This document shows positions 3,387 through 20,000 of a stretch of DNA of 20,000 nt, one piece after another (positions within the stretch are counted from its first letter, which is position 1; every line of letters begins with the position of its first letter). Source of the DNA: an uncultured virus (IMG/VR IMGVR_UViG_3300030107_002792). Its lineage: Duplodnaviria; Heunggongvirae; Uroviricota; Caudoviricetes; Kyanoviridae. The notes under the pieces are model-generated. The model was not told the DNA's origin. It saw only the letters and a program-made list of their open reading frames with translations, and ran no database searches. The stretch lies in IMG/VR virus record IMGVR_UViG_3300030107_002792. One strand, 5' to 3'. The position numbers were made by a program, and so were the translations under genes.

Positions 3387-4313
3387 ATGACTTTTAGAAA
3401 TACACCAGCACAAGATTACGTTCAATCCGATTATACGTCTTCATCTCGTTTACAAATAAACGGTTCTGCTCAAGAGCAGAAGTTCATGGAAAACCTTATC
3501 GTAGAGAGCATTGAAATTTATGGGCAAGACATATATTATGTACCGAGAACTATCGTCAATCGTGACACGGTTTTCGGAGAAGATTCGGATGGCAAGTTCG
3601 AGTCTGCAAAACCAATCCGAGCCTACGTCAATAATGTCGATGGATGGGAAGGACAAGGTGAGTTACTTACAAAGTTTGGAATACGCATCGAAGATAAAAC
3701 GACGTTTATATTCTCCCGTGAAAAGTTTAAAGAAAAGGTTGACGACTCTACAGTCCTTAATGTCGAAGGAAGACCAAACGAGGGGGATCTAATTTGGTTC
3801 CCAATAACAAAACATTTATTTGAAATACAATTTGTAGAAGTTGAGCGTCCTTTCTATCAGTTAGGTAAAGGATATGTTTGGGAATGTCAGTGTGAACTCT
3901 TCGAGTACAGTGATGAAGAAATTAACACTGGTATCACTGAACTGGATGCTGTTGAGACTGCCTTTGCTAATGCTATTACGGTTGGTCTCGTAGCTGGTGG
4001 TAGTGGAGACTTTACTGTTGGAGAAACTGTTACTGGAGGATCATCTAATGTTACGGCTGAGGTTAAGTCTTGGGATTCTTCTACTAGGACTCTCATCGTT
4101 ATCAATCGTTCTGGTATCTTTACTATCCCAGAAACAGTTACGGGGGGAACATCTAGTGCCTCTTGGACAACTGCTACATATAATACAATAGATAATAAGG
4201 CAGTTACCTATGATCAAAATTATGAATTTGAAACTGCCGACGATGATATCATTGACTTCTCCGAATCAAATCCATTTGGTTCTATCGGATCTACTACTGA
4301 CTTGACAATCTAA
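3387..4313 (+). CDS. gp14: Neck protein gp14
   Basis: ESIEIYGQDIYYVPR, RPNEGDLIWFP, PFYQLGK, ELFEYSDEEINTG, DFSESNPFG; follows gp13. Confidence 0.93.
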   Translation: MTFRNTPAQDYVQSDYTSSSRLQINGSAQEQKFMENLIVESIEIYGQDIYYVPRTIVNRDTVFGEDSDGKFESAKPIRAYVNNVDGWEGQGELLTKFGIRIEDKTTFIFSREKFKEKVDDSTVLNVEGRPNEGDLIWFPITKHLFEIQFVEVERPFYQLGKGYVWECQCELFEYSDEEINTGITELDAVETAFANAITVGLVAGGSGDFTVGETVTGGSSNVTAEVKSWDSSTRTLIVINRSGIFTIPETVTGGTSSASWTTATYNTIDNKAVTYDQNYEFETADDDIIDFSESNPFGSIGSTTDLTI

Positions 4314-17625: not shown

Positions 17626-19014
17626 ATGACATTACAACAACTTACAGAAAAGTGGGCTCCCGTTTTGAATCACGATTCAGTTCCTGAAATCAAAGATTCA
17701 TATAAAAAAGGCGTAGTCGCACAACTTCTAGAGAACCAAGAATTAGCAATCAAAGAAGAATCAAACGTTCTTTCTGAGACCCTACAAACAACTGGTTACA
17801 CAACAGGCGATACTGGAACAGGTCCAGTCGCTGGTTTCGACCCCGTATTGATCAGTCTTATTAGACGTTCAATGCCTCAACTAATTGCATATGATGTTGC
17901 TGGCGTTCAGCCAATGACAGGTCCAACAGGACTTATCTTTGCAATGAGATCATTCTACGGCACAGAGCGTAGACCTGCTAATAGTGACTTCAGAGAAGCA
18001 TTATTCAACGAGCCAAACGCTGGTTTCTCTGGTGGTCCTGGCAACCGTCTTACAGACTACGATCCTACTGCTTCATCTTCTGCTATCAACGATGCTGAAG
18101 GTGCTAACCCTGGACTTCTTAACGACTCCCCTGCTGGAGACTACGAAGTAACTGGTGATGCTACTGGAATGGCAACAGCTACTGCTGAAGCTCTTGATGA
18201 CTCTGCTGCTGCTACAGCATTCAGAGAGATGGGTTTCTCAATCGAGAAAGTAACTGTTACTGCGAAGTCACGTGCTTTAAAGGCAGAGTACTCAATCGAG
18301 ATGGCTCAAGACCTTAAGGCGATTCATGGATTGGATGCAGAGCAAGAGCTTGCTAACATCCTTTCTACCGAGATCCTTGCTGAAATCAACAGGGAAGTCG
18401 TTAGAACAATCTATACGAACGCTGTTAAAGGTGCTATCGCTAATACTGCTACTGACGGTATCTTCGACTTAGACGTTGACTCTAATGGTAGATGGTCTGT
18501 TGAGAAATTCAAAGGACTTCTATTCCAAATAGAAAGAGATTCAAACGCTATCGGACAAGAAACTCGTCGCGGGAAGGGCAACATCCTAATCTGTTCTGCA
18601 GACGTTGCTTCAGCTCTCGGAATGGCTGGCGTTCTTGACTATGCTCCTGCTCTTAATGGTAACAACAGTTTGACTGGTGTAGATGATACATCTTCAACAA
18701 TGGTTGGTACTCTTAACGGACGCATCAAGGTTTACGTTGATCCTTATTCATCTAACGTTGCTGACAAGCACTTCTACGTTGCTGGATACAAAGGAACTTC
18801 TCCTTATGATGCTGGACTGTTCTATTGCCCATATGTTCCATTGCAGCAAGTCAGAGCAATCAACCCTAACACCTTCCAACCAAAAATCGGGTTTAAGACT
18901 CGTTACGGTATGGTTTCAAACCCATTCTCAGGTGGTCTTACTCAGGGATCTGGTGCTCTTACAGCCAATGCTAACAAGTACTACAGAAGAGTACAAGTTG
19001 CTAACCTCATGTAA
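17626..19014 (+). CDS. gp23: Major capsid protein gp23
   Basis: EKWAPVL, GVQPMTGPTGLIFAMR, SRALKAEYSIEMAQDLKAIHG, FYCPYVPL, FQPKIGFKTRYG. Confidence 0.98.
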   Translation: MTLQQLTEKWAPVLNHDSVPEIKDSYKKGVVAQLLENQELAIKEESNVLSETLQTTGYTTGDTGTGPVAGFDPVLISLIRRSMPQLIAYDVAGVQPMTGPTGLIFAMRSFYGTERRPANSDFREALFNEPNAGFSGGPGNRLTDYDPTASSSAINDAEGANPGLLNDSPAGDYEVTGDATGMATATAEALDDSAAATAFREMGFSIEKVTVTAKSRALKAEYSIEMAQDLKAIHGLDAEQELANILSTEILAEINREVVRTIYTNAVKGAIANTATDGIFDLDVDSNGRWSVEKFKGLLFQIERDSNAIGQETRRGKGNILICSADVASALGMAGVLDYAPALNGNNSLTGVDDTSSTMVGTLNGRIKVYVDPYSSNVADKHFYVAGYKGTSPYDAGLFYCPYVPLQQVRAINPNTFQPKIGFKTRYGMVSNPFSGGLTQGSGALTANANKYYRRVQVANLM

Positions 19015-19035
19015 TTTGAGATTAACACATAACTT

Positions 19036-19064
19036 AAAGAGACCCATAAGGGTCTCTTTTTTTT
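19036..19064 (+). terminator. Rho-independent terminator after gp23
   Basis: AAAGAGACCC-ATAA-GGGTCTCTTT followed by further Ts. Confidence 0.9.
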
Positions 19065-19066
19065 GT

Positions 19067-19073
19067 CTAAATA
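19067..19073 (+). promoter_or_regulatory. Late promoter CTAAATA for the aaRS-like gene and tRNA
   Basis: Immediately after the terminator, 22 nt before ATG 19095. Confidence 0.65.
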
Positions 19074-19094
19074 GATTAGTTTTGCAAAGAAATA

Positions 19095-19892
19095 ATGACA
19101 AGTTTGATTGATCCAAAAAAATACAGCGAAGCGGTTGACCTATTAAGGTCATTTTTTTTGTCTAAAAACTTTTTGGAAGTTCATACTCAAAACAGACTGA
19201 GTATCCTTGCTGCCTGTGAAGATCCAGAAACAGTAGCAACCTATAACTATGGTGGTAATATTTGGCCACTACCACAGACAGGTCAGATGTGGCTTGAATA
19301 TGAATTACTTTCTAACCCCAAAGCAGAGGGGTTTTTTTGTGTCTCAACTTCGTATAGGGCAGAACCTAACCCAGTACCAGGTAGACATGAGACTATTTTC
19401 CCTATGTTTGAATTTGAAATGAAGGGAGGTGTCAGTGAACTTAAAGATATGGAAATTGATTTATGTCGTTGGTTAGGGGTACCACTAGATGATGGTTCCA
19501 TACAAACTTATGATGATTGGACTAATCAATTCAACACTAAAGAGTTAGACCATGAACATGAGAAACAAATTGGTCGTGGTATGATTACTGACTTCCCTGA
19601 GTGGACATCACCTTTCTGGAATATGGCAAGGAATGATGACGGCACTAGTAAAAAGATTGATGTTATTCTAGGAGGAATGGAGACAATAGGTTCTGCAGAA
19701 CGCAGTACCGACAAAGATCAAATGCGTGATACCTTTTACACTATATCAGATGGCAAGTATGCTCAACTGATTATTGATCTGTTTGGTAGAAGTAGAGTAG
19801 AGAAAGAACTAGAAGACTTTCTATCCTTTGACTTCTTCCCAAGATCAGGTGGAGGCATTGGTATGACTCGCATAATCTCGGCACTTTCATAG
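19095..19892 (+). CDS. Class IIb (Asn/Asp/Lys) aminoacyl-tRNA synthetase-like protein, catalytic domain only
   Basis: Motif 1 LRSFFLSKNFLEVHTQ; LPQTGQMWLE; motif 2 SYRAE...GRHETIFPMFEFE; ETIGSAER; motif 3 SGGGIGMTRI. Motif 1 begins ~15 aa from the start, leaving no room for the N-terminal OB-fold. Confidence 0.85.
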   Translation: MTSLIDPKKYSEAVDLLRSFFLSKNFLEVHTQNRLSILAACEDPETVATYNYGGNIWPLPQTGQMWLEYELLSNPKAEGFFCVSTSYRAEPNPVPGRHETIFPMFEFEMKGGVSELKDMEIDLCRWLGVPLDDGSIQTYDDWTNQFNTKELDHEHEKQIGRGMITDFPEWTSPFWNMARNDDGTSKKIDVILGGMETIGSAERSTDKDQMRDTFYTISDGKYAQLIIDLFGRSRVEKELEDFLSFDFFPRSGGGIGMTRIISALS

Positions 19893-19900
19893 TGCCTCAA

Positions 19901-19983
19901 TCTAGGGTGGCGAAACTGGTAAACGCGACACGCTGTTTCCGTGTTGACTTTTAGTCTTGGTGGTTCGACTCCATCCCCTAGAG
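19901..19983 (+). tRNA. tRNA with GUU (Asn) anticodon, atypical long-variable-arm body, CCA not encoded
   Basis: Acceptor TCTAGGG/CCCTAGA + G73; D-arm GCG-AAACTGGTAAA-CGC; anticodon arm ACACG-CTGTTTC-CGTGT; variable arm T-GACT-TTT-AGTC-TT; T-arm GGTGG-TTCGACT-CCATC. Confidence 0.9.
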
Positions 19984-20000
19984 TTACTATATATCAAAGC

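Follow-up and report, generated by a model that had tools for sequence, protein, structure and literature searches.

An asparaginyl-tRNA-synthetase-derived core and a chimeric tRNA encoded together in marine cyanophages: a possible link to pyrimidine synthesis

Marine phages of the T4 type carry, one directly behind the other, a gene for a synthetase-like protein and a gene for an unusual tRNA, and the question is what such a pair does for a phage. We addressed it in a stretch of 20,000 nucleotides from an uncultured virus of the Kyanoviridae (IMG/VR record IMGVR_UViG_3300030107_002792; hereafter the window), a piece of a T4-like Prochlorococcus myovirus; bases 19000-20000 of the window match phage P-SSM7 at 84.3% identity across 86% of their length. 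On the plus strand, an open reading frame (ORF) at 19095..19892, stop codon included, encodes a class IIb catalytic core of 265 amino acids, apparently derived from asparaginyl-tRNA synthetase (AsnRS) and without an anticodon-binding domain. The tRNA begins 8 nt after its stop codon (19901..19983, same strand): 83 nt with a Leu-type D arm, a long variable arm, the anticodon GUU, U37, C38, U1:A72 and G73, and no encoded CCA. The original prediction took the two for a candidate orthogonal pair, the enzyme charging the tRNA for translation. The reading that we prefer, tentatively and at somewhat less than even confidence, is that the enzyme activates asparagine and supplies dihydroorotate, while the tRNA serves as an asparagine carrier in a host without AsnRS.

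Pfam recognises in the ORF only the class II D/K/N core, PF00152, at 51.6 bits (cut-off 25). The protein begins at the motif 1 helix, class II motifs 1-3 are readable, and the ORF shows no Pfam match to the OB-fold anticodon-binding domain (PF01336). The NCBIfam equivalog models for AsnRS, aspartyl-tRNA synthetase (AspRS), archaeal asparagine synthetase A, EpmA and lysyl-tRNA synthetase (LysRS) yield 15-27 bits against cut-offs of 264-468: 20.9 against 342.6 for TIGR00457 and 19.9 against 414 for NF003037 (both AsnRS), 23.2 against 389 for NF005055 (the archaeal asparagine synthetase AS-AR; 3e-5), and 15 and 17.5 against 286.9 and 264 for TIGR00462 and NF006828 (EpmA/GenX). In PHROGs the enzyme is phrog_29758, function unknown (E 1e-174 over residues 1-264). 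Its AlphaFold2 model, built from 60 homologs, has a mean pLDDT of 96.6, and the best Foldseek matches of the model are AspRS and AsnRS catalytic domains. The family profile finds AsnRS 2xti (3e-15), archaeal AspRS 3nel (6e-14), AS-AR 3p8t (6e-7) and EpmA (about 1e-5) in the PDB.

Conserved residues agree with this placement. Conservation across 78 representatives reaches at least 97% in the arginines of motifs 2 and 3, in the RH pair, in the Mg-binding Glu and along the ETIGSAER strand; the residues at this level include R88 and E90 of motif 2, H98, E196, R203 and R259 of motif 3. At both positions where the aligned AsnRS and AspRS differ, the family is AsnRS-like: the QTGQ (QxxQ) motif is followed by L67-E68 (L-E or A-E in AsnRS, K-Q in AspRS), and E106-x-E108 corresponds to E-x-E in AsnRS and D-x-E in AspRS. 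We take these positions, from the structural literature, to line the side-chain pocket. Judged by these residues, the enzyme retains the class II ATP and adenylate machinery; together with the AsnRS-type residues at the two positions, they indicate that it most probably still makes asparaginyl adenylate. The original prediction of a class IIb core without an anticodon domain, AsnRS-like rather than EpmA-like, is borne out by family scores, PDB matches and conserved residues alike; the family scores give no support to its alternatives, free asparagine synthesis and aminoacylation of a protein target.

Three known groups of proteins invite comparison. The AsnRS catalytic domain (2xti/2xgt, 1x54, 8h53) is the enzyme's best sequence match in the PDB (3e-15) and is among its leading structural matches, with a TM of about 0.75 over the query; the two have in common motifs 1-3, SYRAE and RH as the motif 2 signature, the loop ACE(D/G), and the patterns Q-x-x-(L/A)-E and E-x-E. 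The enzyme differs from AsnRS in lacking the OB-fold, in its equivalog score (20.9 against 342.6 bits for TIGR00457), in a branch of at least 2.3, in a longer helical hairpin before motif 3 and in a gene context of pyrimidine synthesis. AS-AR ('AsnRS2', 3p8t/1nnh), which makes asparagine from aspartate and so has a metabolic job, is likewise an AsnRS-derived core without an anticodon domain, but its similarity to the enzyme is much weaker (6e-7 in the PDB; 23 bits against 389), and we know of no tie between AS-AR and pyr genes or a tRNA gene. EpmA/GenX, the EF-P lysine ligase, is also a class IIb core without an anticodon domain; here the scores are 15-17.5 bits against 264-287, and the pocket of our enzyme is of the AsnRS type, not the LysRS type.

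By these comparisons, the ORF belongs, as an intact member, to a family of AsnRS-derived catalytic cores that is widespread and uncharacterised. Among 1.84 billion representatives searched, 667 family members were found at E ≤1e-3, nearly all of them core-only, and ocean metagenomes contain more than 8000 family clusters at 90% identity. In a tree of the 78 representatives, from which sequences covering fewer than 230 of 280 profile positions were excluded, the family, the window enzyme included, groups tightly in a single clade (support 99), which a branch of at least 2.3 separates from the outgroups (AsnRS, AspRS and LysRS); within it, members from two marine contigs (L115 and L117) form the sister group of the cyanophage clade. 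Prokaryote genomes hold 265 relatives, the best 80 of which come mostly from Saccharibacteria and other Patescibacteria; the other cellular carriers among these best 80 are Aureispira/Chitinophagales, Alphaproteobacteria and Rickettsiales-like metagenome-assembled genomes (MAGs), at 57-62% identity and with no odd tRNA (as we call the unusual tRNA of the module below). The window enzyme is 57-62% identical to members from the candidate phyla radiation (CPR), Aureispira and giant viruses. Giant-virus contigs carry the enzyme at 54-59% identity, with no adjacent odd tRNA; 21 of the 26 viral loci judged lack it, and the other five belong to a second phage clade. The family appears to reach eukaryote-infecting viruses, and perhaps eukaryotes, since a pithovirus MAG gave one cluster its name (the Pithovirus LCPAC304 member, P0277). 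Several representatives (among them P0124, P0134 and P0140) have N-terminal extensions of 40-70 residues resembling targeting peptides. One long homolog (P0294) has a GIY-YIG/NUMOD3 homing-endonuclease module ahead of the core, probably an endonuclease gene inserted beside the core or merged with it. A full-text search of the literature found no paper describing the enzyme family, the odd tRNA or an asparagine route to dihydroorotate; in the portion of Sullivan et al. 2010 available to us, the enzyme is only a table entry, 'tRNA ligase' (T4-GC 194).

The family is tied to pyrD, pyrE and pyrF by fusion, by neighbourhood and by complementary distribution. Fused proteins join DHO_dh to the core or the core to OMPdecase; an OB fold is absent from all 15 longer homologs, nine of which are DHO_dh fusions. 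No relative of the core-OMPdecase protein (P0157) was found in viral contigs. A dihydroorotate dehydrogenase (DHODH) gene, an OMPdecase gene or both lie within 2.3 kb of the enzyme gene in 16 of 110 loci in a local phmmer scan. These 16 come from giant-virus contigs, Aureispira/Chitinophagales, Alphaproteobacteria, Rickettsiaceae and marine phage-like contigs. In one locus (L126) the core heads a same-strand run followed by OMPdecase, PRTase and DHO_dh, and in L142, L191 and others DHODH and pyrE/F stand within 2.3 kb of the enzyme gene. Two contigs unite all the elements, in the order DHODH, enzyme, tRNA (L115) or enzyme, tRNA, DHODH (L141).

The complementary distribution was examined in five carrier genomes, two of them complete chromosomes, and 14 controls, counting matches over cut-off. 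None of the carriers has pyrB, pyrC or carB, whereas pyrB and carB are present in all 14 controls and pyrC in 11 (all 14 matched the model); DHO_dh is found in four of the five carriers and in every control. Within the order of one carrier (G003), 151 genomes include five carriers, all of which fall among the 21 genomes without pyrB; these five may be close kin and do not count as five independent events. A gene of the Dus family (tRNA dihydrouridine synthase, PF01207) lies just 5' of the enzyme gene in 11 Patescibacteria loci (L121, L125, L131, L132, L137, L143, L150, L155, L160, L166 and L192). A complete CPR genome with this neighbour (G005) has no DHO_dh. Such a Dus-like flavoenzyme could stand in for DHODH, or it could mark a link to tRNA in cells. 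Of three related phages with the module, all have pyrE elsewhere in the genome and none has pyrD; no pyr gene is present in the window. As for the host, none of three complete Prochlorococcus genomes has asnS over cut-off, all three have gatB and two have asnB. Since AsnRS is missing and gatB present, Prochlorococcus would make Asn-tRNA by the indirect route; by what is established about this route, the enzymes would be an AspRS that is non-discriminating (ND-AspRS) and GatCAB (PMC9976931, in the part accessible to us).

The tRNA is unusual in a specific way. ARAGORN calls it Asn GTT, and it scores 45.9 bits with the Rfam tRNA model (gathering score 29); other Rfam matches near the ORF (RAGATH-22 with 26.8 bits against 120, and others) were rejected, being far under their gathering scores. 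A cloverleaf drawn from 58 distinct family members is supported by compensatory changes in 21 of 24 predicted pairs. All 58 agree at U8, in the T loop and parts of the D loop, at G73 and at G34-U35-U36-U37. Both U and C occur at position 33, the 1:72 pair takes the form U:A in 52 sequences and A:U in four, CCA is encoded in nine divergent members, and the variable arm measures from 14 to about 40 nt. Measured against canonical elongator tRNA-Asn, the GUU cloverleaf, G73 and U1:A72 are there, but the class I short variable loop and a purine at position 37 are not, U37 being found in 58 of 58. Decoding tRNAs carry a purine at this position.

Among the 38 tRNAs of one complete Prochlorococcus genome, those nearest to the window tRNA are tRNA-Leu(UAA) and tRNA-Leu(UAG). 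The D arm is identical to that of host tRNA-Leu at 16-17 of 20 positions, against nine of 20 for host tRNA-Asn. In the host, tRNA-Leu carries G1:C72 and A73, and tRNA-Asn carries U1:A72, G73 and the loop CUGUUAA. Because its D arm matches host tRNA-Leu, whereas its acceptor end and anticodon match host tRNA-Asn, the odd tRNA is, as judged by sequence, a Leu scaffold with acceptor end and anticodon of the Asn type and with U in place of A37. With bacterial tRNA-Asn, the substrate of ND-AspRS and GatCAB, it has in common GUU, G73, U1:A72 and C32-U33 as in the host; it departs from it in the Leu-type D arm, the long variable arm, U37 in place of A37, and C33 in some members. The non-canonical body of the original prediction is confirmed in this sense, and more specifically as Leu-type; the acceptor end is Asn-like (U1:A72, G73), not foreign. 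According to the accessible part of PMC9976931, bacterial Asn identity consists of the anticodon and G73, the amidotransferase relies on U1-A72 as its determinant, and two features act as antideterminants, t6A37 (in yeast tRNA-Asn) for AspRS and G73 for LeuRS. P-SSM7 presents a mirror image: a UAA (Leu) tRNA just 5' of the module measures only 73 nt and lacks a long variable arm (L001:2871-2943), the counterpart of an Asn-anticodon tRNA on a Leu body.

Enzyme and tRNA are closely linked in marine phages. IMG/VR holds at least 592 relatives of the enzyme, of which we examined the best 80 along with the isolates P-SSM7, P-SSM2 and P-SSM5 and the window. Adjacency was scored by our own motif scan for the anticodon arm and T loop, as ARAGORN and Rfam miss very long variable arms (L066, L115, L117). 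The odd tRNA stands 3' of the enzyme in 78 of 78 cyanophage-like loci with at least 110 nt downstream (six further loci lack the room). Starting from the tRNA pattern alone, which returned at least 120 loci, the enzyme stands 5' of the tRNA in 110 of the 114 with room among the matches listed (six without); tblastn found 108 of these 110 and inspection by eye the other two, behind an inserted small ORF. The linkage between homologs and the tRNA that the original prediction called for is therefore present in both directions and in differing genome contexts. The gap between the two genes is usually 8-20 nt. In all three isolates a 'tRNA ligase' gene is followed by the odd tRNA; the neighbours are gp23, three tRNAs and gp3 in P-SSM7, and hypothetical genes with a lipase in P-SSM2 and P-SSM5. 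In P-SSM2 and in another phage genome (G010) the odd tRNA is the sole tRNA of the phage. It also occurs in the second phage clade, about 50% identical (L103-L106, L108), and in marine contigs (L114-L118, L141).

Some details of individual loci deserve mention. In the P-SSM2 record (AY939844.2, L002) tRNA-Asn PSSM2_199 is annotated within a coding sequence about 2 kb downstream, while ARAGORN places a tRNA directly after the 'tRNA ligase' (locus 3813-3900); the feature coordinates in this version look displaced. A tiny Cys-rich ORF of about 20 amino acids, more than half of them Cys, lies just 5' of the odd tRNA in a complete phage (G164, 55393-56459; L449) and in L351 and L398. On a marine MAG contig with the odd tRNA downstream, a permuted alpha-type tmRNA (RF01849, 125.7 bits) sits directly 5' of the enzyme gene (L117:7559-7932, minus strand). 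Motif-scan matches 232 and 354 nt from the gene in L123 and L161, where ARAGORN finds no tRNA, were treated as chance.

How might the two genes work together? The enzyme family would activate L-asparagine with ATP and deliver dihydroorotate to PyrD, bypassing carbamoyl phosphate, aspartate transcarbamoylase (ATCase) and dihydroorotase; the inputs would be asparagine, ATP and CO2. Asparagine already holds N1, C6, C5, C4 and N3 of the ring, with only C2 missing. From general chemical knowledge, a plausible route would lead from Asn-AMP and CO2 to an N-carboxyanhydride, whose C2 the side-chain amide may attack. In the phage, the enzyme would be an auxiliary metabolic gene acting with the phage pyrE and the host PyrD and PyrF. 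The odd tRNA retains the marks for aspartylation by the host ND-AspRS (GUU, G73) and for amidation by GatCAB (U1:A72); it would be a carrier that brings activated asparagine, as Asn-tRNA made by these host enzymes, to the phage enzyme, or that is loaded by the phage enzyme itself. Such a tRNA would not be drained by the ribosome and would not be mainly a decoder.

A more specific version, which we think rather unlikely, is a tRNA-fed entry to pyrimidines independent of carbamoyl phosphate: ND-AspRS would load aspartate, GatCAB would convert it to Asn-tRNA, and the core would form dihydroorotate with CO2. Atoms and ATP cost would equal those of CarAB, PyrB and PyrC, with housekeeping translation enzymes doing the work. 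The phage would supply the enzyme and a tRNA untouched by translation, and cellular members would use free asparagine or their own tRNA-Asn.

Several observations weigh against an asparagine-activating enzyme coupled to a carrier tRNA. We infer the substrate, product and tRNA use of the enzyme from sequence. No pyr gene is near the enzyme gene in 94 of the 110 loci; 16 genomes of the G003 order, many of them MAGs, lack pyrB and the enzyme as well; and G005, a complete genome with the enzyme, has no DHO_dh. The enzyme occurs without the odd tRNA in cells and giant viruses. Conversely, four tRNA loci have no upstream enzyme, and their four records show none anywhere in the available sequence; two of these four are complete 195-kb phages (G164, G165), which argues against obligate coupling. 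In G164 a canonical tRNA-Asn of 77 nt (loop CUGUUAA) lies at a distance of 0.9 kb from the odd tRNA. The tRNA-linked enzymes are very acidic and lack clade-specific basic residues: only six mostly hydrophobic columns are specific to them, none of them basic, and their net charge is -15 to -25, against a median of -11, so that they are more acidic than the tRNA-less ones. Finally, a late-promoter-like motif inside a structural module suits translation better than nucleotide supply.

That motif is part of a compact layout. The gp23 gene ends at 19014 and is followed by an intrinsic terminator whose stem of 10 bp and loop of 4 nt precede a T run (stem-loop 19036-19059, whole element 19036..19066, plus strand). 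Directly behind it lies CTAAATA (19067..19073, plus strand), which ends 21 nt 5' of the ATG and which we take, like TAAATA in the related loci, to resemble the T4 late-promoter consensus. The terminator, the CTAAATA motif, the 265-residue ORF and the tRNA 8 nt behind its stop codon were all found where the original prediction had placed them. In all 82 related loci with enough upstream DNA, TAAATA is located 27-31 nt 5' of the start codon; exact CTAAATA precedes the enzyme gene in 52 of the 82; the background is 100 in 5464 80-nt windows. The motif and its fixed distance before the gene would suit a T4-type late transcription unit. The region has four terminator-like sites where shuffled sequences lead one to expect 0.6; two hairpins with T runs lie inside the enzyme ORF (window 19136-19151 and 19314-19333) and are probably chance products of AT-rich DNA. 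In Logan contigs, an exact 159-nt stretch of the ORF (19668-19826) is present in two runs of one marine metatranscriptome sample, and diverged short pieces in an oligo-dT study; the small shares of these contigs searched gave none spanning the ORF and the tRNA.

Of the other explanations, the one that fares best, though we consider it improbable, combines a metabolic enzyme of the pyrimidine branch with an independent tRNA, for example a decoder or a decoy resisting host tRNA-targeting nucleases or modification enzymes, the two being kept together as a tightly packed, co-transcribed cassette. Each partner is indeed found alone, the enzyme in cells and giant viruses and the tRNA in the two complete phage records, and the tRNA-linked enzymes show no tRNA-specific adaptation. 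With gaps as short as those usually seen, recombination would seldom separate the pair; Sullivan et al. 2010, as far as its text was accessible, places cyanophage tRNA genes at non-syntenic, possibly mobile regions. An accidental association is harder to reconcile with a linkage that persists through about 50% protein divergence and several genome contexts, and despite an inserted small ORF (L407, L434) and gaps of 98-280 nt. The tRNA has also kept GUU, G73 and U1:A72 while U37 replaces the purine needed for good decoding, and the presence of a canonical tRNA-Asn next to the odd one in G164 makes the latter no plain decoder.

Somewhat less probable again is a private charging pair for translation, in which the core would charge the odd tRNA with asparagine through its acceptor end and so provide a direct late route to Asn-tRNA in a host that has the indirect route only. 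The AsnRS-type pocket and intact adenylate machinery, the host without AsnRS, the conserved late-promoter-like motif, the invariant GUU anticodon and the near-total linkage in both directions (the count from the tRNA being among the matches listed) all suit this explanation, as does the odd tRNA being the sole phage tRNA in P-SSM2 and G010. It is disfavoured by fusions and neighbourhoods that indicate pyrD/E/F and not translation, by U37, invariant where decoders have a purine, by a very acidic enzyme without residues specific to the tRNA clade, and by complete phages that have the tRNA and no enzyme. The late proteins held to be rich in asparagine, which the original prediction offered as a reason for late expression, are not so: gp23 has 6.1% Asn and the gp22-like protein 5.2%, neither notably rich. 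The orthogonal pair of the original prediction was right in the AsnRS-type core lacking the anticodon domain, in the non-canonical tRNA and in the linkage in marine phages. It falls short on the tRNA-less family members tied to pyrD/E/F, the missing basic residues and the phages with only the tRNA; as an orthogonal translation pair fails to explain the pyrD/E/F ties of tRNA-less relatives, the idea is not supported as it was put. The pair formed by PylS and tRNAPyl is a dedicated synthetase-tRNA pair, and here too an enzyme gene and an unusual tRNA gene are inherited together; unlike that system, the present enzymes form a family with members that lack the tRNA and with ties to nucleotide synthesis, and no recoding signal was seen.

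It is very unlikely that the core is an archaeal AS-AR-type asparagine synthetase, amidating aspartate to free asparagine beside an unrelated tRNA: the shared architecture of an AsnRS-like core without an anticodon domain, the weak matches to NF005055 (3e-5) and 3p8t (6e-7), and the lack of asnB over cut-off in one of the three Prochlorococcus genomes and in G005 would fit, but the NF005055 score of 23 bits falls short of a cut-off of 389, both AsnRS and AspRS are much closer matches, Aureispira has the enzyme alongside asnB and asnS, and the DHODH and OMPdecase fusions, the pyr operons and the absence of carB, pyrB and pyrC are left unexplained.

Even if the charging pair alone were true, an anticodon-blind AsnRS with its own tRNA would be of interest to synthetase evolution and to the engineering of orthogonal pairs. 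If the enzyme does make dihydroorotate from asparagine and the tRNA is its carrier, the odd tRNA would be a natural case of a tRNA retained for a non-decoding job, and would show a way of giving a Leu scaffold Asn identity. One synthetase-derived enzyme would then replace carbamoyl-phosphate synthetase, ATCase and dihydroorotase, constituting an unrecognised entry to de novo pyrimidine synthesis, and genomes now scored as pyrimidine auxotrophs would read differently, among them those of ultrasmall bacteria, some Bacteroidota, Rickettsiales-like bacteria, giant viruses and abundant ocean phages. For marine cyanophages, the gene would represent a new kind of auxiliary metabolic gene, from a family that is very common in ocean metagenomes.

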